From SAR324 cluster bacterium (GTDB lineage Bacteria; SAR324; XYD2-FULL-50-16), in contig JANQGX010000058.1 of the NCBI GenBank assembly GCA_028282885.1, positions 68,078 through 132,077 of the forward strand: a DNA stretch of 64,000 nt, given 5' to 3'. This document shows, in pieces, positions 3,220 through 54,775 of this stretch (positions are counted from its first letter, which is position 1; every line of letters begins with the position of its first letter). A program made the translations under genes and the position numbers. The notes under the pieces were generated by a model, which had not been told where the DNA came from, ran no database searches, and worked only from the letters and a program-made list of their open reading frames with translations.

Positions 3220-5286
3220 ATGGCAAAAGAAGCTGCAGAAGATTTCGATCTGGACGGACTTGACGATTTGGATCTTGGAGATGATATCGATCTGGATTTG
3301 GATGATGATAGTTTAAATCTTGATGATGTTGATGTTGGATCATCCGATGATGACCAAGAGTCAGACGTCGATCTTGATGACAACCTTCTGGATGATCTGG
3401 ACCTGGGAGATACACTTTCGGAAGATGGTGCAATAGAGGCCGAAGCTGCCCTTTCTGTCGACGACGAATTGCAAATAGATGATATAGCCGACGTTGGAGA
3501 TGATCTCGAGGGGATGGACTTAAGCGATGACATAAACCTGGATGACTCTGCGGATCTTGGCGGCGATATGGACGATATTCCGGATATTGAGGGTGAAGTT
3601 GGCGATGCCGATCCGGATGCAGGGCTTGATGGCGATTTGGATCTGGATATGCCGGATGACGACGATATCGATCTTGACCTACCAGAAGGTGAAGATATTG
3701 ATATTGCCGGCGATGCAGATCTTGATTTAGCTGACGGGGAAATGACGGTCGATACGGACATGGACGGTGATTTGGATCTGGATCTTGGCACAGACGAGGA
3801 ACTTGCTGAAAGTGAGTTAGATTTGGGTGATACCGATATCGAGGGTGATTTGGATATGGACCTTGCTGACGATGGTGACCTGGAAACTGATCTTGATCTG
3901 GACATGCCTGAGGAGAGTGGTCTGGATGAGGAGACAGAGCTGGATCTTTCGGATGATCCCGGTCTGGAATCAGATCTGGATTTGGAAAGCAGTGATGATG
4001 AAGGAGGTGATCTCGATCTTGATGTCTCCCTGGATGGAGAATCAGATGACGATCTTGATCTGGATGTCTCCTTGGATGAAGAATCAGATGGCGATCTAGA
4101 TCTTGATGTCTCCCTGGATGAGGAAGACAGTGATGACCTTGCAGTACCTGATGACGAAATAGCTGAAGATGGGGCCGGAGATGAAATTCTGGAGTTATCT
4201 GATGACGATGAAGTTTTGGGCGAAGACGCTGTTGAAGCAGATGTTGGTTTGGATTTGGAGTTGTCTGAAGAGGAGGTAACCCTTGATGAAGATTTGGACA
4301 TGGATCTGTCGGACGAAGATGCTGTTTCCGAAGGCGATGATTTGATGATGGAAGAGGAAGAGGTGCCTGTCGAGCCTGAAGTTGAAAAGGAAGGTGAAGA
4401 TGCTCATCTGGATCTTTCATCATTAGAGGATGAGCTGGGGTTGGATGAATCAGAGATAGTAAAGGCGCCGGAAGTTGAAGAAATTAAAGATGTCGAATCA
4501 GATGATGAACTCGAAAGAGAACTGGCCAGCTTTTCCGAAAATGTAAATGGAGGTGCGGAAACAGAAGAAGACGAAGGCCTGGTGCTTGACGAGTCTATGG
4601 TTGTCCAGAAAATAGAACCGGAACTTGCCGGTGAAGAGCCAGAGGATGTCCCCAGTTTTATGAAAGACAGCGGAGAAGAGGAAAGCCTCATGGAAGAGGA
4701 AATCAGCGTAGAGGGCGATGATCTTGAATTTGATGCTGGCACAGATGAGGATCTGGATTTGACCGGGGAGGTGTTTGGCGACGATGACATCGACGAAAGC
4801 CAGATTCAAATTGAGGAAGTGGAAGATGACATGGGTGATGATGATGAAGACATGTTGAGTCTTCCGGAACTGGAAGATGACGAAGAGATTTTGGATCTTT
4901 CAGCCGAAGAAGACGATGAACCTGTTATGGTTGAAGTACATGACGATTTTGCAGATGACGCCCAGGAGGGGAGTTTCGAAGAAACAGATACATCTCAGAC
5001 CTTTGAAACAGTACCTGCCGCAACCATAGATAAACCTTCAGCCAAACCGCTGGTTGGACAGGAACTCTTATTAAATCTGAAACACACACTAACCGTAGAA
5101 ATCGGAAAATCGATCCTCAAAGGCCAGGAGATTACCGAGTTATCTTATGGCTCCGTTATTGAGTTGGATAAGAAAATCGGAGATCCGGTTGAAATCATCC
5201 TGGGTGACAAATCAATAGCCCGGGGAGAAGTGGTTCAGATCAATGAAGATCAGTTGGGTGTAAGAATCACAGGCATTAACTTCTAG
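3220..5286 (+). CDS. FliN/SpoA-domain protein with a very long polyacidic (D/E/L-rich), repeat-containing N-terminal region
   Basis: The last ~80 aa (LLLNLKHTLTVEIGKSILKGQEITELSYGSVIELDKKIGDPVEIILGDKSIARGEVVQINEDQLGVRITGI) match the FliN/SpoA C-ring domain. Residues 1 to ~600 are low-complexity DLDLD/EE repeats. There is a good RBS (AGGAG) upstream. Confidence 0.7.
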   Translation: MAKEAAEDFDLDGLDDLDLGDDIDLDLDDDSLNLDDVDVGSSDDDQESDVDLDDNLLDDLDLGDTLSEDGAIEAEAALSVDDELQIDDIADVGDDLEGMDLSDDINLDDSADLGGDMDDIPDIEGEVGDADPDAGLDGDLDLDMPDDDDIDLDLPEGEDIDIAGDADLDLADGEMTVDTDMDGDLDLDLGTDEELAESELDLGDTDIEGDLDMDLADDGDLETDLDLDMPEESGLDEETELDLSDDPGLESDLDLESSDDEGGDLDLDVSLDGESDDDLDLDVSLDEESDGDLDLDVSLDEEDSDDLAVPDDEIAEDGAGDEILELSDDDEVLGEDAVEADVGLDLELSEEEVTLDEDLDMDLSDEDAVSEGDDLMMEEEEVPVEPEVEKEGEDAHLDLSSLEDELGLDESEIVKAPEVEEIKDVESDDELERELASFSENVNGGAETEEDEGLVLDESMVVQKIEPELAGEEPEDVPSFMKDSGEEESLMEEEISVEGDDLEFDAGTDEDLDLTGEVFGDDDIDESQIQIEEVEDDMGDDDEDMLSLPELEDDEEILDLSAEEDDEPVMVEVHDDFADDAQEGSFEETDTSQTFETVPAATIDKPSAKPLVGQELLLNLKHTLTVEIGKSILKGQEITELSYGSVIELDKKIGDPVEIILGDKSIARGEVVQINEDQLGVRITGINF
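4006..4134 (+). repeat. Three tandem 42-bp in-frame repeats. Each unit encodes GDLDLDVSLD(G/E)ESD.
   Basis: Near-identical 42-nt units begin at 4006, 4048 and 4090. Confidence 0.8.
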
Positions 5287-5331: not shown

Positions 5332-6294
5332 ATGGCAGAAATCGTTGTCAAACCTTATGATATAACAAACGGTGAAAAGGTAACCTATGGCTATTACTCA
5401 GCACTGGAGGCCGTATTTCACCAGTTTACCGACAAACTTGAATCGTTTATGTATGACGAGTTCAAACTGGTTTTTGACTTCGAATTTGCCATTAAAACAG
5501 GAAATAAATTCCAGCAGGTGCTGGACGGTATTCATCAACCCTCATCGATCTTTATCTTGGGTATTTCGCCCCTGATGAGAGATTCCCTTCTCAAAGTCGA
5601 TAATCGCTATATCAATCTCATCTTAGCCAAGTCATCTCTGTTCAGAGAAGGTAAAGTGGTTGTTAACGACAGATATTCTTTAGCCGACACCAACAGCAAA
5701 GAGGTTAAAGAGCACATGGAGCAGATGTTAACATTGTTCCAGGGTAGTTGGAGCAAAATACAGGAGGTTGAATGTAGTTTGAAACGGTTGGTGTCCAATA
5801 AAATCAAAGCCAAAATCATGGATTCTACTGAATCCTGTGTTGAAGTCATTGTGACCATGAAGCAGAATAAATTTGCAGCAAACCTGGAGTTCTGCTTTTC
5901 AACGTATCAACTGGATCGGATTATTGAAAAAAGAGGATCCAGGGGACTGCTGGCCACTGGTGAAGAACAACCCTATGACAGTGGAATAAAGGAGTATCTC
6001 ACCAATCTGCTGTTAAATGAGTCCAGCTTTGAACTTAAGGGTGTACTTGGCACAATTGACCTCTCTTCAAAGGATCTGGTTGAGTCATTTGAACAGAAAA
6101 AGGTCATTCCCGTAAAAAACAGTGTGGGATCGCATGCGGTCGTGGAATTGGATAATACCCCAATTCTTGCTGCTGATATAGGCGAGACTTCCGGTTCGAT
6201 ATCCCTTCAGGTGAAGGATAGTTATTCTTCAATGGAAACAGAAAGTCAGAAGACTAAAAAACGGTTCTCACAGATCAGTTTTTCCAACAAATAG
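5332..6294 (+). CDS. FliM-like protein (CheC-like middle domain plus a C-terminal SpoA-like segment). It lacks the N-terminal CheY-P-binding peptide.
   Basis: Recalled similarity to E. coli FliM in three places. VKPYDITNGEK resembles IRPYDPNTQRR. MEQMLTLFQGSWSKIQEVE resembles INRMLKLALEGYSDAWKAINPLEVE. EVIVTMKQNKFAANLEFCFSTYQLDRII resembles the GEFNICLPFSMIEPL region. The C-terminal segment GTIDLSSKDLVESF...VVELDNTPIL resembles a SpoA domain. Confidence 0.5.
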   Translation: MAEIVVKPYDITNGEKVTYGYYSALEAVFHQFTDKLESFMYDEFKLVFDFEFAIKTGNKFQQVLDGIHQPSSIFILGISPLMRDSLLKVDNRYINLILAKSSLFREGKVVVNDRYSLADTNSKEVKEHMEQMLTLFQGSWSKIQEVECSLKRLVSNKIKAKIMDSTESCVEVIVTMKQNKFAANLEFCFSTYQLDRIIEKRGSRGLLATGEEQPYDSGIKEYLTNLLLNESSFELKGVLGTIDLSSKDLVESFEQKKVIPVKNSVGSHAVVELDNTPILAADIGETSGSISLQVKDSYSSMETESQKTKKRFSQISFSNK

Positions 6295-6472: not shown

Positions 6473-8059
6473 ATGCGCTTTTTGTTAATAAACCCGTTTT
6501 GCCCAATAACCGAGGGACCCACCCCTCCCCTGGGAATCTCTTTTCTTGCAGCAGCACTGGAGAGAGCCGGGGTTGAGGTACGAATTTTAGATTTTACAGT
6601 TTTCCCTTATAGCAAAGGCTTTTTGGAGACCGTTCTGAATGAGTTCCAGCCCTCAATGGTCGGATCTACTTCTGTTACCATGACTTTCGATTACGCTATT
6701 GAAACCATTAGAGATATCAAGCAAATCTCACCTGATATTCTAACCGTAATGGGCGGTCCCCATGTGTCCTTCTGCTATGAAGAGACCTTGAGAAAGTTTC
6801 CTGAACTGGATTTTATTGTCGCAGGAGAGGGAGAAGAGACGATTGTTGAGTTGGCTTCTGAAGCCGGGGGAATGAAAGCGTGGAAGCAAATCAATGGGCT
6901 GATATTCCGGGACGGGGACAAGATCCTGGTTAACGAACCCAGGGGATTTCTCGATGTGAATACGCTGCCGATGCCTGCACGCCATTTACTGCCTCTTGGC
7001 AGGTATCGCGCTTTACACACACCAATCAGCATGACCACAAGCCGGGGCTGTCCGTTTCATTGTATTTTCTGCGTGGGCCGGAAGATGGTGGGGGCCAGAG
7101 TTCGGTACCGTGATACCAAGCTGGTAGTGGACGAACTCGAATACCTGTCGACACTGAACTTCCCGCAAATTAATATCTCCGATGACCTGTTTACAGCCCG
7201 AAAATCTCATTGTATAGCGATCTGTGATGAGATCATGAAAAGAGACCTCTCCATCACCTGGTCCTCTTTTGCAAGGGTTGATACGGTTTCACCGGAGCTG
7301 CTGGCAAAGATGAAAGAAGCAGGGTGCAGAACCGTTAGCTTCGGTGTGGAGACAGCCAATGCGGAGATTTTGAAAACCATTAAAAAGGGAATCACGCTTG
7401 AAAAAGTGAAAAGGGCAATTAGGTTTTGTGTTGAAGCCGGGATAGAACCCCATGTCTCTTTTATTCTGGGCCTGCCTGGAGAATCACCCCAAACGCTTGA
7501 GGAGACCAAAGATTTTGGCAAGGAGATTGAAGAATTAGGCGCCTGTTACGGGTTTCATCTATTGGCTCCCTTTCCCGGTACCGCTGTCCGAGACAATAAT
7601 GAGGACTACGATTTGAGCATCCTTACCGAGGATTGGAAACAGTATCATGCTAATCGGGCTATTGTAGAAACTGAACAGGTTGGAAAAGAAGTGCTGAATG
7701 CAATCGCAGAAGAGTGGGATTATGAAACTCAAAACAAACTGGCTGAAATCAAACAGCGTATTGACCAGGGAACAGCTACAGATGATGAAGCCTGGCAGGT
7801 AATCAACCTTGATCGATTTCTGTTCATCTACCAGATGATGATGGAGAATACCCTGGAAAACCATGGAAGCTGGATAAACGGAACTCCGTTTGCTTCAGAC
7901 TCGGCCGCCTTGAAAGATCTTGCGAGACGAATTCATGGTCCCATGGGGAAAACTGAACCCGAAGCTTTGGCTATTCTGCAATATGCTTTTGAACGGGGGA
8001 GTATTGAGTATGCAGATGTCGACAACAGGGTTGTCTGGAATTGGCAGAAATTGGATTGA
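6473..8059 (+). CDS. B12-binding-domain radical SAM protein with an extra C-terminal region of ~150 aa
   Basis: N-terminal MRFLLINPF B12-like Rossmann domain and a canonical CPFHCIFC (Cx3Cx2C) radical SAM motif. Confidence 0.85.
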   Translation: MRFLLINPFCPITEGPTPPLGISFLAAALERAGVEVRILDFTVFPYSKGFLETVLNEFQPSMVGSTSVTMTFDYAIETIRDIKQISPDILTVMGGPHVSFCYEETLRKFPELDFIVAGEGEETIVELASEAGGMKAWKQINGLIFRDGDKILVNEPRGFLDVNTLPMPARHLLPLGRYRALHTPISMTTSRGCPFHCIFCVGRKMVGARVRYRDTKLVVDELEYLSTLNFPQINISDDLFTARKSHCIAICDEIMKRDLSITWSSFARVDTVSPELLAKMKEAGCRTVSFGVETANAEILKTIKKGITLEKVKRAIRFCVEAGIEPHVSFILGLPGESPQTLEETKDFGKEIEELGACYGFHLLAPFPGTAVRDNNEDYDLSILTEDWKQYHANRAIVETEQVGKEVLNAIAEEWDYETQNKLAEIKQRIDQGTATDDEAWQVINLDRFLFIYQMMMENTLENHGSWINGTPFASDSAALKDLARRIHGPMGKTEPEALAILQYAFERGSIEYADVDNRVVWNWQKLD

Positions 8060-8060
8060 A

Positions 8061-10220
8061 TCAGACAGTTCCTTCCAAAGCGCGATTTGCTTTTACTGAC
8101 TTGACAGTGTTGAGTTTGCTTAAAATTTTGTCCAGTTGTTCGGAACCATCGACTGTTATCGTGATGTCCTGAACACTTTTGTTGTCGACCAACTTCAGAT
8201 TATTCTCAAGCAGGGAGACTTTTGCTGAGGCCAGAACTTTCATGATCTGTAGATTGGTCTTTATCAGATTGTCGAATGTCAGTTTGATTCTGACAGGAAG
8301 TTTCTCCGCAGCCGATTTAATCCATTCAACCTCAACCAATCTTTCCGGATCGAAGCTCTTGGATCTGATGTTTTCACAATCAGCGAGATGCACCGAAACA
8401 CCTTGCCCTTGAGTGACAAGACCGACGATTTCGTCACCTTTAACCGGGTTACAGCAGTTCGCATATTTTACCATCATGTTCTCAATCCCCGCTATTCGGA
8501 CAGCTCTTTTTCTCTTGCTGTCATCCCTTGCAACAGCCGGCTTATGCGGTCGTTTCGAAATCTGCTGCCGTTCTGCCGGTGCAACGAACAACTGGTCAAG
8601 GTCTTCCGGATCAGCCTTACCGTAGCCAAGGTGGATAAAATAGCTGTTGATATCGGCATAACCGCCATCTGACAAGTAACGTTTTAATTCCGGAGATTTT
8701 AGAACATCGCGGGATCTTTTACCCAGTTTTGCTACTCTTTCATTGAACAGCTCCTTGCCCAGCACTTCAGCATGCTCCCTTTCTTCCTTTCTCAGAAAAG
8801 AGCGAATTTTGGCAAGAGCTCTTGAGGTCACTGCATAGTTAAGCCAATCCCTGGACGGATGCTGTTTTGATGAAGTTAACACCTCGACTTTGTCGCCATG
8901 TTTGAGCTGGGTTCTGATTGAAACGTTTCTCCCGTTTATTTTCGCACCGGTGCAGGTTTGTCCGATCTCTGTGTGTATTGCATAAGCAAAATCAATGACG
9001 CAAGCTCCTGATTGCAGCTTAACAATCTTGCCCTTTGGGGAGAAAACATAAACAAAATCAGAATAGAGCTCCCTGGTAAAGATATCCAGAGATTCCCTGG
9101 CATCGCTGGCAACATTAAGGCTGTTGATCAGATCCTGCAACCATGAGGTTCTCTCACCGGCTGTCGGAGCCTCGTTATTGTCTGCCTTGTAAGCCCAATG
9201 GGCGGCAACTCCCCTCTCTGCTATACTGTCCATTTCAAATGTCCTGATCTGGACGTCGAAACCGATACCGTCACTCGTATACACATCAATATGGAGTGAC
9301 TGATAATTATTCGGCTTGGGAAATGAGATATAGTCTTTGAAACTCTCGGTTACCGGGCGATAATGGCTGCTAATCAAGCCAAGCACCTTGTAGCATTCAT
9401 CTATATTGTTGACGATAATCCGAGTACCCAGCAGATCATGAAGGTTCTCGTAGTCGATATTGTTTCTGCGAGACTTCATGAAAATGGAATAATTATGTTT
9501 GATTCTGCCTTTGACCTTTCCTTTAATTCCGTTATGAAGAAGTAGGTTGGAAATCTCCTGGTAAAGCCGTTCCAGGGTCTTTGTATGCACATCCTTATTG
9601 TCAATGCAGAAGTCCTCTATCTCTTTATGTTCCTTCGGATGAGAATAGGAAAAACAGAGATCCTCCAGCTCTATTTTTATATGAGACAAGCCCAATCGAT
9701 CTGCGATGGGAGCGTATATCTGCAAGGTTTCCTTGGCGAGAGAGGTCATTCTCAGATTCTCCGGCCGGTTGCCTTGTCTCATTCTTACCAACCTGGCTGC
9801 AAGACAGACAAATATGATGCGGATGTCCTTTGATGAGGCAAATACCATCTGACGCATCTTTTCCGCAATCCGCTGCTTTTCATCCTGAATATCGGAAACC
9901 GCCCTGATATTGTGCATCCCGGCAATAATGCTGGAAGTCTCGCTCCCCAGCAAGTCCTCAATCTCATCTATGCTGATCTTACCTGCATCCAGAACTCCGT
10001 TCAGTAAACCCGAAACAATGCATTGAATGTCAAGTTTCAACTTGACGAGAATGCTGGCAATCTCAAGGGCGATCTGTAATTGATTTCGCGGGAAAAGCTT
10101 CAGATAAGACTGGGCTTTTGCAGCAAGAACATACGCTTTCTGGATCGGACTACAGTCGATTTTATTGTCCGTATACTCTTTAAACGTAGCAATAATCTCT
10201 TCGATTCGGATGACTTGCAT
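8061..10220 (-). CDS. relA: RelA/SpoT-homologue (p)ppGpp synthetase, RelA-type. The hydrolase HD motif is degenerate; the synthetase, TGS and ACT regions are intact.
   Basis: Synthetase motifs RIKHNYSIFMKS...YQSLH are present. The region where HD...ED is expected reads LNGVLDAG instead. Confidence 0.8.
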   Translation of the reverse strand: MQVIRIEEIIATFKEYTDNKIDCSPIQKAYVLAAKAQSYLKLFPRNQLQIALEIASILVKLKLDIQCIVSGLLNGVLDAGKISIDEIEDLLGSETSSIIAGMHNIRAVSDIQDEKQRIAEKMRQMVFASSKDIRIIFVCLAARLVRMRQGNRPENLRMTSLAKETLQIYAPIADRLGLSHIKIELEDLCFSYSHPKEHKEIEDFCIDNKDVHTKTLERLYQEISNLLLHNGIKGKVKGRIKHNYSIFMKSRRNNIDYENLHDLLGTRIIVNNIDECYKVLGLISSHYRPVTESFKDYISFPKPNNYQSLHIDVYTSDGIGFDVQIRTFEMDSIAERGVAAHWAYKADNNEAPTAGERTSWLQDLINSLNVASDARESLDIFTRELYSDFVYVFSPKGKIVKLQSGACVIDFAYAIHTEIGQTCTGAKINGRNVSIRTQLKHGDKVEVLTSSKQHPSRDWLNYAVTSRALAKIRSFLRKEEREHAEVLGKELFNERVAKLGKRSRDVLKSPELKRYLSDGGYADINSYFIHLGYGKADPEDLDQLFVAPAERQQISKRPHKPAVARDDSKRKRAVRIAGIENMMVKYANCCNPVKGDEIVGLVTQGQGVSVHLADCENIRSKSFDPERLVEVEWIKSAAEKLPVRIKLTFDNLIKTNLQIMKVLASAKVSLLENNLKLVDNKSVQDITITVDGSEQLDKILSKLNTVKSVKANRALEGTV

Positions 10221-43424: not shown

Positions 43425-45956
43425 ATGTCGAATCACATTACTACATACGATCATCTTAACGGTTTCTATCGACCGGGGTTGTCGTTTCCCGATCAACTGG
43501 TAAACACCACTGTGGGAAGAGACACGCTTCTTGAGGAGGTGATTGAAAAGCTGAATGACAACAAGGCAGAGAGTGAAAGAACCAGTTTCATGATCATGGG
43601 TCCACCCGGGGTGGGTAAAACCCATTTCATTAGGGTTTTGGGAAGGACCATTCAAAATCGTGATAGTTTGAAAGACCGCTTTATCCTTATCCAGTTTCCG
43701 GAAGAAAACCATAGAATCCTGACCTTCGCTGACCTGCTGACGGGCATAGTGGAGATTTTGGAGAACATGACTGCCGAGAAACAATGGTCTGAGCTATACC
43801 GGAATCTTGTCGAACTGGAAGATGATACTGTTCTGATTGAAACTGCGATCCCGGAGTTCGAATCATATTGCAAGACAAATGAGAAAACCATGTTGATCCT
43901 GTTGGAGAATATCGATGTCTTTTTCCGGGGACAACTGAGAGACAATAAAAATGTCAAACAATTTCGGAAATTTATCACCAAATCCTCGTTTGCGAATTTC
44001 ATAGGAACCTCGCAGTTCAACCTGATTAAATCAGAAGAGCTTCGAAAATCTCCCTTCACACTGTTCGATATCCATATTCTCGATGTTCTGGATGAGAAAG
44101 AGACACTACAACTGATAAAAAAGAAACTGGAATGGGAAAAGCAAAATGAACTTCTGGATTCGTTTGAAGAGCTAACCCCCCGAATCAGGGCTCTATATGA
44201 AATGTCCGGTGGTAATCCCCGATTGAGTCTCATTTTGTATGAACTGCTTGTAAAAGAAAGCAAATGGGATATTAAACGTCAATTGGAGAAGCTCCTGGAT
44301 CAAACCACTCCGTTCTTTCGTGACCGAATGAGGTCCCTTGCACCGCAGGAACGCGCCTTGCTGGAGATCATCTCACTAATGAAGCTTGATTACAAAACAA
44401 CTGCGAAAATCGCAAAAGCTTCACGACAATCCCATCAGCAGACGGCAAATCACCTGAACAAGCTATTAAAGGCAGGATACCTGGTGGTTGTGGACCACCC
44501 GACAGACAAACGCTCCCGGATTTACAGAATCAAGGAGGGATTTTTTGGTCTTTGGCTTGCGATCGGCCACTCCCGTAAACAGAATATTATCTTACCACGC
44601 CTCGTCGAGTTTTTTGAGCAGTGGTATGCGGAAAAAACCGTCAGGGAGAAGAAACGGCAACAGATCTGGAACTCGCTTCGTTCCCTTGAAGTCAATCCGG
44701 ATCTGATAGAGATCGATAATCAGGAATTATTGCTTCAATATCTTTCGGATATTGGTGATGACAAAGAAAAAGCCAGAAGTAAACTGGAACTTGTGTTTTA
44801 TTTCCTGTCACTAGCCAAGATAAGGGAAGCAAAAAGATTGATTCTGGAGATTTACGAGCTTGACTATGCTAAACCTTACTATTTTGAGTGGTTGCTCCAG
44901 CAATGCAAGAGCTGGATTTCAGGCAATATCGAACCGGTTATTTTGCAGGAGATGGAAGATATCCAGAAATGCTGGAACCTGCAGAACCTAAACCTCCCGG
45001 AAGCCTTGGGAGAGCAGGCTTTGAACCTGGCCATCAACTTTTTTAATAACGGGTTTTATGACCTGGTACAGTCATTTGTTGAAGATATGCTGTCGACAGG
45101 CACCGATCCGAGGATCAGAATATTATTGCTGGAAAGAGTGGCTGTCAGCCAGGAAAAACTTAAAAACTGGGATTCGGCCATAAGCTCATGGAAAGAGGTT
45201 TTGGAAAATGCTGAAAAGCATCGTGACTACAAATCGCAGGGCACTATTTTAAACAATATTTCTCAGATCTACCAGGATCAGGGAAATTATGATCTTGCCT
45301 TGGAAAACCTAACCAAATCGCTTCAAATCTTAAAAAAAATCAAAGATTACGATGGGCAAGGGACTACCCTGAACAACATCTCCACCATTCATTTTGACCA
45401 GGGGTATTTTGAGAAGGCGCTGGAAAGGCTTGAGGAAGCTTTGGGAATATCAAAGATCAGTGGAAATCTCTTTATTGAAGGCATCACCCTCAGCAATCTC
45501 TCCATGATTTATCAAGCCCGGGGAGATTTTGAGCCTGCCCTGGATTGTCTCTATCGGGCCTTGGATTACATGCGCAAAATTGGTGATTCCTCTTCGGAGT
45601 GTATTACCCTCAATAATATTTCACAGGTTCAACTGGAGCTCGGACTGATAGACGATGCGTTTCGTTCCCTGCAACATGCGCTTTACATCGCCCAGGATGA
45701 GAACAACAAACAGGCAACATGCCTTACCCTTTACAACAGGGGAAAACTTCACAAGGCTTCGGGAAAGAACGAAGAAGCGATGATTAACTGGACTTACGCA
45801 TATAAAATAGCTCGAGAGGAAAATGTCGTTGAGGTGCTGGAAAAGCTGGACAAGGTAGCTGAATCTAAAATTGATAATAGCAAGGAGTTCTGGCAAAACA
45901 GGCTGAAGGATTTGATCATTCAGGAGCAAGATGTCGAAACCCCCGGTATCAATTAA
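43425..45956 (+). CDS. STAND-like P-loop NTPase (AAA_16-type) with a winged helix and a long C-terminal TPR array
   Basis: Walker A MGPPGVGKTHF. Walker B MLILLENID. At least 6 TPR-like repeats (NNISQIYQDQGNYDLALENL...). Confidence 0.75.
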   Translation: MSNHITTYDHLNGFYRPGLSFPDQLVNTTVGRDTLLEEVIEKLNDNKAESERTSFMIMGPPGVGKTHFIRVLGRTIQNRDSLKDRFILIQFPEENHRILTFADLLTGIVEILENMTAEKQWSELYRNLVELEDDTVLIETAIPEFESYCKTNEKTMLILLENIDVFFRGQLRDNKNVKQFRKFITKSSFANFIGTSQFNLIKSEELRKSPFTLFDIHILDVLDEKETLQLIKKKLEWEKQNELLDSFEELTPRIRALYEMSGGNPRLSLILYELLVKESKWDIKRQLEKLLDQTTPFFRDRMRSLAPQERALLEIISLMKLDYKTTAKIAKASRQSHQQTANHLNKLLKAGYLVVVDHPTDKRSRIYRIKEGFFGLWLAIGHSRKQNIILPRLVEFFEQWYAEKTVREKKRQQIWNSLRSLEVNPDLIEIDNQELLLQYLSDIGDDKEKARSKLELVFYFLSLAKIREAKRLILEIYELDYAKPYYFEWLLQQCKSWISGNIEPVILQEMEDIQKCWNLQNLNLPEALGEQALNLAINFFNNGFYDLVQSFVEDMLSTGTDPRIRILLLERVAVSQEKLKNWDSAISSWKEVLENAEKHRDYKSQGTILNNISQIYQDQGNYDLALENLTKSLQILKKIKDYDGQGTTLNNISTIHFDQGYFEKALERLEEALGISKISGNLFIEGITLSNLSMIYQARGDFEPALDCLYRALDYMRKIGDSSSECITLNNISQVQLELGLIDDAFRSLQHALYIAQDENNKQATCLTLYNRGKLHKASGKNEEAMINWTYAYKIAREENVVEVLEKLDKVAESKIDNSKEFWQNRLKDLIIQEQDVETPGIN

Positions 45957-46716
45957 AAATAAAAACAGGATCAAAGGGTTTGTCATCTGCCTTGCACTCT
46001 TATCTATCCAAATCGGATTGCCCGGCGTTTCTCGATCTGAAGCATCTGATCTCACCATAAGACAAAAAGCGCTCTCATATCCCGAAATTCTTTACAAATC
46101 CGGAGAGTATTACCGCTCAATGTCTGAAATAATGAGATTAAAGTTTGAGCTCGGATATGAAAAGGATGAGCTTCAATTGGACATTCTTTATCTCAAAAAT
46201 GCATACAAATTAAAGGAGTACAGAAAAATTCTGGATTCGGCCCCCGGATTAATGGAAAATCCCGGGGTGAAAAACAGCCCTGAAAAAAGGCATCAAGTCG
46301 GCAAGATTTTAACCGCAACCCTGGTAAATCTGAAAGACTATTCAAAAGCGGCCGATACCTGGGACGCTTGTTGCAGTTCCTCGGGCAGGGAGTTCGTCAA
46401 ACCTGACGAAATTCCGGGAATGGTTGATCCGGACCGGGCCCGATGGTATTCGACTTTCTTACCAGGCTCCGGTCTTTTACTTTCCGGGGAATATGGTAAA
46501 GCGCTGGTTTCTTTCTTGTTGAATAGCATAACCCTCTATGGAATTTACCACTATGGAACCCACCAACAGATGGGCACAGCCGGTCTGTTGCTGTTTTTTG
46601 AAATAGGTTGGTATGCAGGCGGTCGAAACGCCTCGGCAGAAGCTGCCGAGGACCATAATCGCGCCCTGGTATCGGAATATTATCAATCCAACTATTACCC
46701 GGAATTGGGTAACTAA
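45931..46716 (+). CDS. Hypothetical secreted/membrane protein (signal peptide; C-terminal hydrophobic segments). Overlaps the preceding gene by 26 nt.
   Basis: Signal-peptide-like N-terminus and 2-3 C-terminal hydrophobic stretches. Confidence 0.45.
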   Translation: MSKPPVSIKNKNRIKGFVICLALLSIQIGLPGVSRSEASDLTIRQKALSYPEILYKSGEYYRSMSEIMRLKFELGYEKDELQLDILYLKNAYKLKEYRKILDSAPGLMENPGVKNSPEKRHQVGKILTATLVNLKDYSKAADTWDACCSSSGREFVKPDEIPGMVDPDRARWYSTFLPGSGLLLSGEYGKALVSFLLNSITLYGIYHYGTHQQMGTAGLLLFFEIGWYAGGRNASAEAAEDHNRALVSEYYQSNYYPELGN

Positions 46717-47969: not shown

Positions 47970-50168
47970 ATGAAGATTCTTTTGATCACGCCACCTTTCA
48001 CGCAGTTGAACTCACCATATCCTGCGACCGCTTTTCTAAAGCAGTTTCTGGCAGGAAAAGGCGAAAAGGTGAATCAAAAGGATTTGGGTCTCGATCTTTT
48101 TCTCTCAATTTTTTCTAAAAACGGCCTGGAGCGGGTTTTCGTTCATTCGAGGGATAATAAAGAGAAGCTGGACAGGCAATGCCGAAAAATAGAGTCAGCC
48201 TCACGGCGATATATCAATTGCATCGAGTCCGTCGTCTCTTTTCTCAAAACCCGGGAATCCGGCCTTGCGTACCTGATCTGCCGAGATGGCTTTTTGCCTG
48301 TTGGAAAAAGACTTTCACAGGCAGTTGACCTTGAATGGGCGTTCGGTACAACCGGAGTAATCGACAAAGCTTGCTATCTCTCAACCCTGTTTCTCGAAGA
48401 GATTAGCGATTTTATCAGAAAACGGATTATTCCGGATTTCGGATTCAGCCGCTATGCAGAACGCCTGGCCCTTTCAGCCACCTTTTTTGAGCCTATTCAT
48501 CAAGCTCTGCAGCAAAACAACTCTTTTTTGGATGAAATCATCTCAGAAAGCATCCATCGATATCTGGATCAAGAGCAGCCCAATCTCGTCGGATTCACGA
48601 TTCCTTTCCCCGGATGTCTGTTTGGTGCCTTGAAAAGCTGCATGGTTATCAAACAAAGGGATACTTCCATTAAAACTGTTCTGGGTGGAGGATATGTCAA
48701 CACTGAACTCAGGGAACTTGAAAGCACTTTAATCTTTCAATACTGCGATTATATCACCCTGGACCAGGGAGAACTGCCTCTGCTTCGCATTATTGAACAT
48801 TTGAAAGACGAAAAAAACCTGGATTCTCTTGTCCGAACGTACACCTGTATTGAAAACGAAGTTCAATATTGGCCCGGTACAGAAAAAGATGTTGTACCAT
48901 TCGCAGATTCCGGTTTTCCCGACTATGAGGACCTGGATCTGCACGAGTATCTGTCCATCATGGAATTGACCAATCCCATGCATCGATTATGGAATGACGG
49001 CAAATGGAACAAAATGATGGTCGCGCAGGGATGCTACTGGCAAAAATGCTCTTTCTGCGATACAAGTCTCAGCTACATTAAGGATTATGATACAGTTGGC
49101 GCCGAGACACTGGTCAATCGAATAGAACAGTTAATCGCTCAAACCGGTCTGACCGGTTTTCACTTTGTCGATGAAGCAGCCCCGCCTTCCGTGTTGAAAA
49201 ATCTGGCTATCGAACTGCTTAATCGCAATATTAACATCAGTTGGTGGACCAATATTCGATTTGAAAAAAACTACACCCCGGATTTGTGCAGGCTTTTGGC
49301 TAAATCGGGATGTATCGCTGTTTCAGGAGGGTTGGAAACAGTTTCTGACAGGCTTCTTGATTTAATGAACAAGGGGGTAAACCTGGACAAGGCCGTTTCT
49401 GTCCTGAGCAGCTTCAATCGGGCAGGAATAATGGTGCATGCTTACCTCATGTATGGATTTCCGACTCAAACAGAACAGGAAACCATCGACGCTCTGGAAA
49501 TCGTGCGCCAGCTTTTTGAAAACAGCCTGATTCAATCCTGTTTCTGGCATCGATTTTCACTGACTGCTCACAGTGCGATTGCCCGGAATCCAAAAGCCTA
49601 TCAGGTCAAGATTACCGGATCCGAAAAAGGGACGTTCGCGTGGAATGATCTTTATCACCAGGATCCAAAAGGTTGCGAGCACGGTGATTATGCAAATGGC
49701 CTGGAAAAAGCGGTTTATAACTTTATGCATGGAATCGGAATCGAGTACAATGTCGCGTCCTGGTTTGATTTCAGAACTGTGCCATCGACTATTTCTCCCG
49801 AATTTGTCAGCCTGTTAACCAAAAGCACACCAAAAACCTCCAAGGCGAAAGAACACCATCAGGTTCTTTGGTTGGGCGATAAACCGCAATTACTGATCCC
49901 TCACCCGGGAAGAAGTAAAAAGAACAGGACCGCGTCTTGTAAGCTGATCATCAATGGAGACCATTCAGATATCAGCATCAAGTCGGATGAACAGCAGTGT
50001 AGATGGATATTGGAGATTCTGGATTCGGCGACCCCTGCCAGTGGTGTCTTATTGACGGTTAAACAGGTAGCCGCAGCATATGAGCAGAAGTTTGATCAAT
50101 CATTTGAGCTGCTTAAAAACAGCTCACAATGGCAAAAACTGGAGAGAAACGGCCTGATTTATATTTGA
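47970..50168 (+). CDS. Large (732 aa) B12-binding-domain radical SAM protein with a non-canonical Cx4Cx2C cluster motif and ~200 aa of unassigned C-terminal sequence
   Basis: MKILLITPPF B12-like N-terminus. VAQGCYWQKCSFCDT followed by HFVDEAAP (the FxDD-type motif of B12-rSAMs). Confidence 0.7.
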   Translation: MKILLITPPFTQLNSPYPATAFLKQFLAGKGEKVNQKDLGLDLFLSIFSKNGLERVFVHSRDNKEKLDRQCRKIESASRRYINCIESVVSFLKTRESGLAYLICRDGFLPVGKRLSQAVDLEWAFGTTGVIDKACYLSTLFLEEISDFIRKRIIPDFGFSRYAERLALSATFFEPIHQALQQNNSFLDEIISESIHRYLDQEQPNLVGFTIPFPGCLFGALKSCMVIKQRDTSIKTVLGGGYVNTELRELESTLIFQYCDYITLDQGELPLLRIIEHLKDEKNLDSLVRTYTCIENEVQYWPGTEKDVVPFADSGFPDYEDLDLHEYLSIMELTNPMHRLWNDGKWNKMMVAQGCYWQKCSFCDTSLSYIKDYDTVGAETLVNRIEQLIAQTGLTGFHFVDEAAPPSVLKNLAIELLNRNINISWWTNIRFEKNYTPDLCRLLAKSGCIAVSGGLETVSDRLLDLMNKGVNLDKAVSVLSSFNRAGIMVHAYLMYGFPTQTEQETIDALEIVRQLFENSLIQSCFWHRFSLTAHSAIARNPKAYQVKITGSEKGTFAWNDLYHQDPKGCEHGDYANGLEKAVYNFMHGIGIEYNVASWFDFRTVPSTISPEFVSLLTKSTPKTSKAKEHHQVLWLGDKPQLLIPHPGRSKKNRTASCKLIINGDHSDISIKSDEQQCRWILEILDSATPASGVLLTVKQVAAAYEQKFDQSFELLKNSSQWQKLERNGLIYI

Positions 50169-50228
50169 CAGCCCGGTCTTTCCTGTTTCAGTAGTCAATA
50201 CATAAACATAGTTTTTAAAGGAGTATTA

Positions 50229-51347
50229 ATGAAACGCGTATCCCTAACTCCGGCAGTATTTCATTTGTCAGATCGTGTAAATGCCGTTGCCCCCGAATAT
50301 GCCAGACAACCGATTGTTCCCCGGGGACCGGCACTTAAACCGATTCTGGACAGGCTGAGAGGTAAAGTCACAGATCAACTGGAGGTTTCCGACACCCATG
50401 AAGCGGTCATCATCTCTTCGTCCGGTTCGGGAGCCATTGCTGCCACTATAGGTTCATGCGTGGATGATAATGGATTCCTGGTAATTGCAAATGATGTTTA
50501 CGGTCAAAGACAAGCCGATTTTAGCGAGCAACTGGGTATTAAAACCGTTACATATAGCCTGGATTTTGGAGTCAAGCCGGATTTGGCGGAGATCGAACGA
50601 CTTGTGGACGAGCATGGGATCAAAACGATCGGAATGGTACACGGCTGCACAAGCGTTGGACTCCTAAATCCAATTGCCGAAATCGGGGCCTTTTGTAAAA
50701 AGAAGAACCTGAAGCTGATAGTCGATGCTATCGCCTCTATCTATGTTGAGGAGATTGATATCGACAAATGTGGTATCGATGCCTTGATCTGTTCAACCAA
50801 CAAAGCGCTGCATTCAAATCCGGATATCGCTTTCTCGGTGATTGCAAGAGACTACCTTGATGAAATGGCGCAAAGACCGGGACGAATACCCTATCTGGAT
50901 CTCCATAAAACCTGGCAATTACAATCCAAAGGAAGCCATCCCTATACTATTAACATTCGGGCCCTACTAGAGTTTGAAGCGGCTTTGGACGATTTTAACG
51001 AAAGAGGCGGACTCACCGCCAGAATCAATATGTACAGAGATCGTCTGGCAATCCTCAGGGCGGGTTATGAGAATTTGGGTTTAAAAACGTTCCTGAGAGA
51101 GGGAATGGAACAGCAAAATATTGGAACAGCTCTTTATCTGCCGGAGGGTCTTACCTATGACAGTCTTGCAGATGAACTGGCTAATTGGAACAATGGTGAT
51201 GGTGAATGCTATGAAATCTATTCCGCACAGGGGGAACTCTCGGGAGAGGTCTTCAGGATATTCAATATGGGTGAATATCCCCTGGATACCTATCGACGAT
51301 TCATCAACGCATTGGAGACATGTATCAATAAACTGCTGAAAGGATAG
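50229..51347 (+). CDS. Class V (AGXT/PhnW-fold) PLP-dependent aminotransferase
   Basis: PLP-lysine context ICSTNKALHS. Overall class V fold pattern. Confidence 0.65.
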   Translation: MKRVSLTPAVFHLSDRVNAVAPEYARQPIVPRGPALKPILDRLRGKVTDQLEVSDTHEAVIISSSGSGAIAATIGSCVDDNGFLVIANDVYGQRQADFSEQLGIKTVTYSLDFGVKPDLAEIERLVDEHGIKTIGMVHGCTSVGLLNPIAEIGAFCKKKNLKLIVDAIASIYVEEIDIDKCGIDALICSTNKALHSNPDIAFSVIARDYLDEMAQRPGRIPYLDLHKTWQLQSKGSHPYTINIRALLEFEAALDDFNERGGLTARINMYRDRLAILRAGYENLGLKTFLREGMEQQNIGTALYLPEGLTYDSLADELANWNNGDGECYEIYSAQGELSGEVFRIFNMGEYPLDTYRRFINALETCINKLLKG

Positions 51348-51377: not shown

Positions 51378-51980
51378 TTAATCGTTGAAATCTGTTCGTC
51401 CCTCAAATGCGCGAGCCAGTGTATTTGAATCGGCAAATTCAAGATCAGCTCCGGCGGGCATTCCCCTCGCAATCCTGCTGATCTTGTCCACACGCCCCTT
51501 AAACACATTTACCAGGTAGTGTGCTGTCGCTTCACCTTCCAAAGTGGAATTCGTGGAAAGAATCAGCTCCTTGACTCCCCCATTGGCCACCCGCTGCTCC
51601 AGCTCACTGATTCTTAATTTATCCGGTGAGATCCCCTGCAGAGGGGATATGGCCCCTTGGAGAACATGGTAGACACCGGTGAAGATACTTGTACTTTCAA
51701 TGGTAAACACGTTTCTGGGATCTTCCACAACGCAGATGATTTCCTGATTTCGTTTGGGATCCGAACAGATTTGACATATCTCATCATCGGAAAAGGAGAA
51801 ACAGTTCCGGCAGGTCTTGATGTGCTCTTTGGCATTTTTGATGGCTTTGGAAAGAGCTTCGGCCTCTTCGTCCGCTTTGAACAAAATAGCGAAGGCAAGT
51901 CGTTTTGCGGTTTTTTTACCAATTCCGGGAAGTTTAGCCAGCTCTTCTGTCAGTTGAATAATGGGTTGCGGTAGATTCAT
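51378..51980 (-). CDS. recR: Recombination protein RecR
   Basis: HhH, C4 zinc finger CRNCFSFSDDEICQIC and Toprim domain. Confidence 0.9.
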   Translation of the reverse strand: MNLPQPIIQLTEELAKLPGIGKKTAKRLAFAILFKADEEAEALSKAIKNAKEHIKTCRNCFSFSDDEICQICSDPKRNQEIICVVEDPRNVFTIESTSIFTGVYHVLQGAISPLQGISPDKLRISELEQRVANGGVKELILSTNSTLEGEATAHYLVNVFKGRVDKISRIARGMPAGADLEFADSNTLARAFEGRTDFND

Positions 51981-54106: not shown

Positions 54107-54137
54107 TGCAGTGAAAGGTTGTCATATGAGAAAAGAA

Positions 54138-54223
54138 AGTGATCCGTAACGCATCTTCCAATACTTAGTGCTGCTTCCTTTCGGACCTGACACGATTCGC
54201 ACCTTCCAATCGTACGGATCACC
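54138..54223 (-). ncRNA. ffs: Signal recognition particle RNA (4.5S, small type)
   Basis: Contains GTCAGGTCCGAAAGGAAGCAGC, matching the SRP RNA domain IV consensus. It is closed by the long helix GGTGATCCGTACG / CGTTACGGATCAC. It lies immediately upstream of dnaX, as in many bacteria. Confidence 0.75.
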
Positions 54224-54229
54224 GCATTG

Positions 54230-54319
54230 TGGCGGAGAGACGGGGATTCGAACCCCGGAAACAGTTTCCCATTTACACGCTTTCCAGGCGTGCTCCTTCA
54301 TCCACTCGGACACCTCTCC
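54230..54319 (-). tRNA. tRNA-Ser (anticodon GGA)
   Basis: Hand-folded cloverleaf with long variable arm. Anticodon loop CUGGAAA. GGTTCGAATCC T-loop. Encoded CCA. Confidence 0.85.
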
Positions 54320-54378
54320 GCGTTTTCTTTGCTCCCTGGCACAGGATCTATCGATGATCCCCTCCTTCCAGGAACATG

Positions 54379-54455
54379 TGGTACACCCGAAGGGACTTGA
54401 ACCCCTGACCCCCTGTTCCGCAAACAGATGCTCTATCCAGCTGAGCTACGGGTGC
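54379..54455 (-). tRNA. tRNA-Arg (anticodon GCG as folded)
   Basis: 77 nt. D-loop AGCTGGATA. Anticodon stem TCTGT/ACAGG with loop TTGCGGA. GGTTCAAGTCC T-loop. Encoded CCA. Confidence 0.7.
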
Positions 54456-54489
54456 ATCATTCCGTTGGTGTCATCTTCCTGCAGCCTTA

Positions 54490-54579
54490 TGGCGGAGAGA
54501 CGGGGATTCGAACCCCGGGTACCCTTGCGAGTACAACAGATTAGCAATCTGCCCCATTCGGCCTCTCTGGCATCTCTCC
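54490..54579 (-). tRNA. tRNA-Ser (anticodon GCT)
   Basis: Anticodon stem-loop CAGATTGCTAATCTG. Long variable arm. GGTTCGAATCC. Encoded CCA. Confidence 0.85.
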
Positions 54580-54689
54580 GTTTTCCGCACTTCCGCTAAT
54601 ATCGCATATCGGAAGTGTGCAGTGGTTTGCTTTGAGCTTGTGGAACTATTTCAGCAGGAAGTACGACAGCATTTGATGCAATGCTATTC

Positions 54690-54775
54690 TGGAAGAGGGA
54701 GGGGGATTCGAACCCCCGATGCCGAAGCATAACGGTTTTCAAGACCGCCGGATTCAACCACTCTCCCATCCCTCC
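54690..54775 (-). tRNA. tRNA-Ser (anticodon TGA)
   Basis: Anticodon stem-loop GCGGTCTTGAAAACCGT. Long variable arm (GTTATGCTTCGGCATC). GGTTCGAATCC. Confidence 0.8.

Follow-up and report, generated by a model that had tools for sequence, protein, structure and literature searches.

The B12-type radical S-adenosylmethionine (SAM) enzymes form a network in which, according to a 2026 review, large groups remain uncharacterised and every functionally characterised group includes C-methyltransferases; AprD4 and ArsL, which have a related Rossmann domain and bind no B12, lie inside the same network (PMC12931638). In OxsB and TsrM, the GG and GE motifs are hot spots of cobalamin (Cbl) binding, and the C-terminal domains of solved B12-dependent radical SAM enzymes bind substrate (PMC9204698). 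The B12-dependent OxsB, known from its crystal structure, has a Cx4Cx2C cluster motif in place of Cx3Cx2C (PMC9204698). The same spacing occurs in GenD1 (PMC4340712), and RadicalSAM.org includes a Cx4Cx2C megacluster (PMC9477430). The present analysis deals with the gene for a radical SAM protein of 732 amino acids (aa) and with the class V pyridoxal phosphate (PLP) aminotransferase gene that follows it. Both lie in a stretch of 64,000 nucleotides (the window) from a SAR324 cluster bacterium (contig JANQGX010000058.1, positions 68,078 to 132,077).

The 732-aa protein belongs, as an ordinary member, to a very large orphan family of cobalamin-type (class B-like) radical SAM enzymes that extends across phyla. 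The explanation that we regard as moderately probable for the whole locus is that an orphan member of this type, always with Cx4Cx2C, stands beside a separate aminotransferase to which it is adjacent by gene order. The initial annotation of the window had pointed to an odd motif and a paired pathway. Both turn out to be ordinary, the motif being a trait of the family and the pairing a matter of local synteny. The value of the locus lies in the family itself, which counts among the large B12-type radical SAM groups that are still unexplored.

The radical SAM family and its cysteine cluster

A word-indexed search returned at least 8000 scored candidates (90% identity clusters), all with E <= 0.001. 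The best 120 of these measure 725-765 aa and are 46-63% identical to the window protein over 93-100% of the length. A scan of one genome per GTDB species gave at least 594 confirmed stretches, from which 80 loci were kept. These loci belong mostly to Bacteroidota (Cytophagales, Chitinophagales, Flavobacteriales, Saprospiraceae, and Bacteroidales), with a few from Nitrospirota, delta-proteobacteria, and Smithella; SAR324 lineages also carry the family. Conservation across phyla amounts to 45-50% identity, and the mean column identity in the family alignments is 63-65%. Names in the databases stop at 'radical SAM protein' or 'B12-binding domain-containing radical SAM protein', and no characterised member of the family was found in the literature. 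A mention of B12 and radical SAM in an EF-P preprint proved to be unrelated to the family.

Seventeen cysteines are present in the protein (residues 71, 84, 104, 135, 216, 224, 259, 293, 355, 360, 363, 440, 448, 524, 569, 657, and 677), and the sole triad among them is C355-YWQK-C360-SF-C363. As the initial annotation had stated, the spacing is Cx4Cx2C; Cx3Cx2C occurs nowhere along the 732 residues, and no extra upstream cysteine restores the canonical spacing. The spacing had been presented as an oddity, a view that does not extend to the class, for which OxsB and GenD1 are precedents, or to the family. The pattern C-Y-W-x-[KRQ]-C-[STA]-F-C was found in all 81 family open reading frames (ORFs) of the fetched loci and in all 120 listed database homologues, and none of these 201 relatives has Cx3Cx2C. 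Cx4Cx2C is a family-wide trait with solved precedents, not a peculiarity of the window gene. In an alignment of 47 sequences C355, C360, C363, and C448 are invariant, and the commonest loop of the family reads C-Y-W-G-K-C-T-F-C. The best PDB sequence match of the family profile, the queuine lyase 6P78, has the very similar C-I-W-G-K-C-S-F-C; however, this enzyme is a single domain of 251 aa and the match is marginal (E 0.025). The likeness of the loops may be due to a common origin of the core or to convergence.

OxsB (5UL2-5UL4) shares with the window protein the cysteine spacing, a length of about 730 aa, extra N-terminal helices, a Cbl-type Rossmann domain, a radical SAM barrel, and a C-terminal cap. 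The two differ in several respects. Their identity is 14%, and the family profile does not retrieve OxsB from PDB sequences at E <= 1. The extra helices sit inside the Rossmann domain in the window family and in front of it in OxsB, and the C-terminal domain is a helix bundle in OxsB and of mixed strands and helices in the window protein. No OxsA-like partner (HD-domain phosphohydrolase) was seen among the neighbours inspected. An identity as an OxsB-like ring-contraction enzyme was rejected because of the profile search and the lack of such a partner among these neighbours, with the motif and the overall fold as the shared features.

In most genomes the radical SAM gene stands by itself. ORFs were called in 82 loci and clustered by all-against-all BLASTP; apart from the radical SAM family itself, no family was found in more than six loci, and the recurring ones came from close relatives, e.g., Hymenobacteraceae. 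No small conserved ORF accompanies the gene across the clustered loci. Of the 74 loci for which both neighbours were called, 48 lack a same-strand gene at a distance of up to 100 bp in either direction. Seven loci in which the gap upstream of the gene is long were scanned with Rfam and revealed no riboswitch, of the cobalamin or any other type, and the Rfam-type RNAs of the window are four tRNAs and the signal recognition particle (SRP) RNA only. Since the gene is almost always solitary, genome context will not reveal its function. Many culturable Bacteroidota carry the family (Pontibacter, Hymenobacter, Dyadobacter, Chitinophaga, and Flavobacterium), which makes knockout and biochemical study practical.

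Some individual neighbours were recorded. In a Smithella locus (L063), a short radical SAM gene stands between an alanine dehydrogenase gene (134-1246), which ends 11 bp ahead of it, and a gene for a class I SAM methyltransferase (3226-4095), which begins 33 bp after it. Alanine or pyruvate enzymes adjoin the radical SAM gene in two unrelated lineages, Smithella and that of the window with its alaA, too few to interpret. A Nitrospirota metagenome-assembled genome (MAG; L008, 8295-9929) and a SAR324 MAG (L099, 1-2771) each have a same-strand gene for a hybrid PAS-histidine kinase-receiver protein about 60 bp upstream of the radical SAM gene, again two cases and too few to interpret. Another regulator-like protein near the gene is the STAND/TPR protein that heads the gene block in the lineage of the window.

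The class V aminotransferase and its adjacency

The ORF downstream of the radical SAM gene matches Pfam PF00266 with 53.1 bits (cut-off 21.5) and is a class V aminotransferase. The initial annotation had compared its lysine context, STNKAL (residues 189-194), with the 2-aminoethylphosphonate (AEP) transaminase/AGXT subfamily, and the searches lead to the same place. TIGR03301 is the closest model (199.7 bits against a cut-off of 360.8; next unrelated family, 83.5), followed by NF010006 (168.8 against 296) and TIGR02326 (157.1 against 400.8). PhnW 1m32 is the nearest solved structure (E 1.6e-33 over residues 39-363) and PhnW/AepZ the best curated family. The predicted PLP lysine K192 (codon 50802-50804) pairs with the lysine of SANKCIQ in PhnW, and D166 and R343, the arginine of the C-terminal FRIxNxGE, also line up with their PhnW counterparts. 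In contrast to this likeness, all AEP-transaminase models stay below their cut-offs, and the scores do not establish an identity as 2-aminoethylphosphonate:pyruvate transaminase; the contexts of the gene vary. By its profile and alignment matches, the aminotransferase belongs to the AEP-transaminase/AGXT branch; we take it as a separate enzyme, for which a substrate of AEP type or AGXT type is plausible.

The initial annotation correctly placed the aminotransferase gene 60 bp downstream of the radical SAM gene and took the two as a functional pair. The pair would then carry out a two-step pathway, e.g., methylation and transamination of a phosphonate, a lipid head-group, or a small molecule, at least in this lineage. 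We consider such a pathway quite improbable. The two genes are on the same strand, an AAAGGAG ribosome-binding site precedes the start codon of the aminotransferase, and no terminator-like hairpin was found in the 60-bp gap. The genes also adjoin in loci L002-L004 (45-bp gap) and L094/95 (158-bp gap). For each protein the best curated match is a family of phosphonate enzymes (PhpK and PhnW/AepZ, respectively), and a relative of the aminotransferase in Leptospira weilii, 52% identical, is encoded about 5 kb from phosphoenolpyruvate (PEP) mutase and phosphonopyruvate decarboxylase. These points favour a shared pathway, but the distribution of the genes argues against it. When the window's aminotransferase was searched by tblastn with a limit of 10 kb from the radical SAM gene, it was found only in L001-L004, of which L001 is the contig of the window and L002-L004 represent one close relative. 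None of 80 other genomes with the radical SAM gene has it within this distance. The 69-75% identical relatives of the aminotransferase all belong to one syntenic lineage, as do the two loci recovered in a metagenome scan. Within this lineage, L086-89 have four small genes between the radical SAM and aminotransferase genes: a 72-aa ORF and, on the opposite strand, the genes for YggT, a CxxCxxCC protein, and a cold-shock protein. Relatives with 47-57% identity, from SAR324 and other MAGs, have unrelated neighbours, and in one SAR324 metagenome assembly the two genes are on separate scaffolds. No Bacteroidota, the commonest phylum of the radical SAM gene, appear among the 120 listed aminotransferase homologues (all >= 45% identity), and therefore the two genes differ in phyletic distribution.

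A phosphonate connection was also sought in the window. No match to ppm or ppd was found in its 64 kb by tblastn with the Leptospira Ppm and Ppd as queries, as expected from the initial annotation, which saw no PEP mutase. Proximity to ppm/ppd was restricted to the Leptospira relative among the aminotransferase contexts examined, and within the 64 kb a phosphonate link found no support. The score of the radical SAM protein on the PhpK model (91.5 bits) is far under the cut-off of 600, and the other B12-type radical SAM ORF of the window scores 148 on the same model. Adjacency of the two genes is best read as conserved local gene order in the lineage, not as an obligate two-gene pathway.

Predicted domains and chemistry of the radical SAM protein

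An AlphaFold2 model built on 47 homologues has a predicted local distance difference test score (pLDDT) of 87.6 and a predicted TM-score (pTM) of 0.88. Pfam Radical_SAM PF04055 scores 54.4 bits (cut-off 29.5), and strands and helices alternate over residues 347-528 of the model, as in a partial (beta/alpha)6 barrel. The leading Foldseek matches in the PDB are TsrM (6wte, E 9e-14), which also has the GG/GE cobalamin-loop motifs, and OxsB (5ul2-4, E 2e-12). Both align over 470-520 columns, consistent with a two-domain fold of Rossmann domain and barrel. The methyl-coenzyme M reductase (MCR) glutamine methylase MgmA (9ccb, E 2e-10) and AprD4 (6fd2) follow, and MiaB, HydE, LipA, and HemN are also among the matches. 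B12-type radical SAM families account for all of the better NCBIfam matches: PhpK (TIGR04479), then the C-methyltransferases of peptides that are synthesized ribosomally and modified post-translationally (RiPPs; TIGR03975, 87.1 bits against 281.85), ApyD, BzaD, BchE, and HpnJ, none of which reaches its cut-off. The assignment to the B12-type radical SAM enzymes, made at the outset from sequence, is supported by these results. What had been called an FxDD-type motif is actually F399-V-D-E, part of the invariant GFHFVDEAAPP (396-406), which forms the GGE-equivalent strand; SGGLE(T/V)xSDR (452-461) is a second core motif.

The class B methyltransferases (PhpK, RiPP methyltransferases, GenK/GenD1) share with the window protein the GG/GE motifs and, in GenD1, the cysteine spacing, and the PhpK and RiPP methyltransferase profiles cover residues ~180-545. 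The window protein differs from them in being about 200 aa longer, with a helical insertion and a family-specific C-terminal domain, and in having no biosynthetic gene cluster. Identities as a PhpK-family P-methyltransferase and as a RiPP C-methyltransferase were both discarded, the first on its score and the second on its score and the absence of a recurrent neighbouring ORF.

The N-terminal half contains a Rossmann domain that is split in the model. About 160 residues of inserted helices part strands 2-7 and 33-38 from the other three (206-210, 235-239, and 261-263). In the 47-sequence alignment, the loops after the Rossmann strands are the best-conserved stretches of this half, with the invariant TPPxTQxN-PYPA (7-19), PFPG (212-215), GGG (239-241), and DxGE (265-268). 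The invariant G239-G240-G241 and G267-E268 correspond to the GG and GE cobalamin motifs by position in the predicted fold, not by superposition. Given these motifs, we consider cobalamin binding by the radical SAM protein likely.

No Pfam family matches residues 536-732 even at E <= 10, in agreement with the initial annotation, in which about 200 C-terminal residues had been left without a family. The region contains the invariant H534, N559, D565, H571, and N584, with D560 nearly so. Residues 600-732 modelled alone have a pLDDT of 87.9 and are structured from about residue 631; the best Foldseek match of this fragment in the PDB has an E of 0.22. A profile of residues 620-732 was searched against 1.84 billion representative proteins at E <= 0.001 and gave 371 matches. 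Nine of the ten sequences inspected are fragments or members of the same family, and one is a chimera. The copy number of the domain varies between 0, 1, 2, and 3 across the family. Complete short forms of 624-644 aa that lack it were found in one MAG each of Nitrospirota (L012), delta-proteobacteria (L052), and Smithella (L063), all with 53-54% identity to the window protein from residue 1 to ~610, and tandem forms with two or three copies are represented by P0323 (855 aa), P0298, and P0249. Dozens of matches of about 145 aa were also retrieved. The four inspected begin at the conserved internal Met586 (N-F/Y-M-H-G motif), as expected of genes cut by contig ends, and a stand-alone family of small proteins was discarded; these matches appear to be gene-calling artefacts from truncated metagenomic contigs. 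One protein of 349 aa (P0315) joins a ParB-like N-terminus to the domain, as either a real fusion or an assembly chimera. The median isoelectric point (pI) is 5.8 for the whole protein and mildly basic, 8.2, for the last domain alone; a reading as an RNA enzyme from charge was dropped, the values being uninformative.

We infer a substrate-binding or capping role for residues 536-732. The last domain could also serve in the modification of a peptide or protein, as a substrate-recognition module comparable to a RiPP-recognition element (RRE), an idea that we regard as highly improbable. The second-best NCBIfam match is the RiPP C-methyltransferase model, MgmA is a protein methylase, and the domain is modular. 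Its order of strands followed by helices presumably resembles that of PqqD-like elements, which we take as a lead only. On the other hand, Foldseek finds no match at E < 0.2, whether to PqqD/RRE or to anything else, the gene has neither a small ORF nor another neighbour conserved beside it, and the TIGR03975 score (87 bits against 282) is far from its threshold.

The orphan cobalamin-type enzyme that we favour would work as follows. As judged from the superfamily and the invariant motifs, C355, C360, and C363 would hold a [4Fe-4S] cluster that binds SAM and cleaves it reductively to a 5'-deoxyadenosyl radical. The split Rossmann domain (residues 1-38 and 201-300), with its invariant GG/GE loops, would hold cobalamin over the barrel, as the fold matches with TsrM and OxsB suggest. 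The substrate radical might then be methylated from methylcobalamin or rearranged in an OxsB-like manner, which is the weakest step of the explanation. Residues 536-619, together with the 620-732 domain where it is present, would cap the active site and recruit the substrate. Methylation is the default guess because all characterised groups of the B12-type network include C-methyltransferases, with OxsB- or AprD4-like chemistry still in play. The solitary gene and its high sequence conservation make a common cellular molecule (lipid, cofactor, RNA, or protein) a more likely substrate than the product of a gene cluster, and our best guess is cobalamin-assisted radical methylation of such a common cellular substrate. 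The stronger proposal, in which Bacteroidota, Nitrospirota, and bacteria of the SAR324 type use a housekeeping cobalamin-dependent radical SAM enzyme on a universal lipid, cofactor, RNA, or protein and the C-terminal domain recruits the substrate, is tentative and somewhat doubtful. If it were true, the substrate would expose a new, widespread B12-dependent trait in environmentally dominant bacteria. Study of the family could add a new cobalamin-dependent process to those that govern the demand for B12 in soils, freshwater, and oceans.

Several points weigh against the explanation by an orphan cobalamin enzyme beside a separate aminotransferase. The family has no studied member, so every catalytic step has to be inferred. 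Gene order in Bacteroidota is generally poorly conserved, and the absence of conserved neighbours is for this reason weak evidence on the kind of substrate. Co-transcription of the radical SAM and aminotransferase genes in the window genome is possible, because the genes from the STAND NTPase to the aminotransferase run in one direction, are nowhere more than 60 bp apart, and show no terminator. Pfam B12-binding PF02310 gives a weak match at residues 193-271 that stays below threshold (17.8-19.2 bits against 32.1), probably because the helical insertion splits the Rossmann domain, and the cobalamin-free AprD4 is among the fold matches of the model.

The last two points would also fit a Rossmann domain that is a cobalamin-free relic, similar to that of AprD4 and ArsL. 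The enzyme would then use SAM and one cluster for non-methylating radical chemistry, such as dehydration, C-C bond formation, or 3-amino-3-carboxypropyl transfer. Among the fold matches AprD4 6fd2 is a good one (E 1e-8; target-normalised TM-score 0.61), ArsL is among the NCBIfam matches (E 4e-7), and cobalamin-free proteins do sit within the B12-type network (PMC12931638). Nevertheless, the top fold matches are true cobalamin enzymes, and the strand-end loops PFPG, GGG, and DxGE, which correspond to the GG/GE motifs, are invariant across phyla in the pattern of a cofactor site. We regard a relic as unlikely.

Gene order and other features of the window

The radical SAM and aminotransferase genes close a co-directional block (Table 1) that runs from the STAND NTPase through the 261-aa hypothetical protein and the AlaA-like gene, which ends 26 bp 5' of the radical SAM gene. 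The position of the pair after alaA and before recR was as initially annotated. Beyond recR lie ybaB, a dnaX-like gene, the SRP RNA, four tRNAs, and serS, and the remainder of the window consists of housekeeping genes (alaS, trpD/F, hisD/B, rpoN, relA/spoT, and lysS). The pair had been suspected of being a small accessory insert, an idea at odds with both the base composition and the gene order: GC is flat at 0.44-0.46 over the block and its flanks, and relatives keep the order trpD...STAND-hypothetical-radical SAM-aminotransferase-recR-ybaB-dnaX-serS. In L002, the radical SAM gene overlaps at its start with the stop of the 261-aa hypothetical gene. The alaA-like gene is present in L086-89 and L094-95 and absent from L002-4. 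The region is syntenic housekeeping DNA and not an insert, and alaA, not the pair, is the variable gene. MAGs labelled 'Proteobacteria bacterium' and SAR324 cluster supply the nearest named homologues.

Table 1. Positions of the genes and predicted protein regions discussed. Numbers refer to the window, except for the short forms, which are given in their own loci.
Feature	Position	Strand	Basis or remark
Radical SAM ORF, 732 aa	47970..50168	+	ORF listing
N-terminal region, residues 1-345, Rossmann-type cobalamin-binding-like domain	47970..49004	+	AlphaFold2 secondary structure, invariant columns
All-helical insertion of ~160 residues (39-200) between Rossmann strands 2 and 3	48084..48569	+	Conserved FGFSRYAE and LEWAFG
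Radical SAM core, residues 346-535	49005..49574	+	Pfam PF04055 at residues 353-510
Cx4Cx2C loop C355-YWQK-C360-SF-C363, predicted ligands of the SAM-binding [4Fe-4S] cluster	49032..49058	+	
C-terminal extension, residues 536-619, no family match	49575..49826	+	Alignment; Pfam search
Family-specific C-terminal domain, residues 620-732, four strands then four helices	49827..50165	+	
Class V PLP aminotransferase ORF, 372 aa	50229..51347	+	ORF listing; Pfam PF00266
AlaA-like class I/II aminotransferase, 404 aa	46729..47943	+	NF006230 352 bits, below the 534 cut-off
Hypothetical protein, 261 aa, no family match	45931..46716	+	Kept upstream across the lineage
STAND-type NTPase, 843 aa (AAA_16, MarR-like winged helix, TPR repeats)	43425..45956	+	Heads the co-directional block
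recR, convergent with the aminotransferase gene, closes the block	51378..51980	-	ORF listing
SRP RNA, then four-tRNA cluster, between the dnaX-like gene and serS	54132..54775	-	
Short forms without the C-terminal domain	L012 518-2398; L052 1088-2962; L063 1258-3192		

The second B12-type radical SAM ORF of the window (6473-8059, plus strand) encodes a protein of 528 aa whose N-terminus is canonical for class B. Its NCBIfam matches, led by HpnJ (180 bits) and BchE (177 bits), all fall short of their cut-offs. The ORF follows FliN/FliY-like (3220-5286) and FliM-like (5332-6294) genes and precedes relA/spoT (8061-10220, minus strand).

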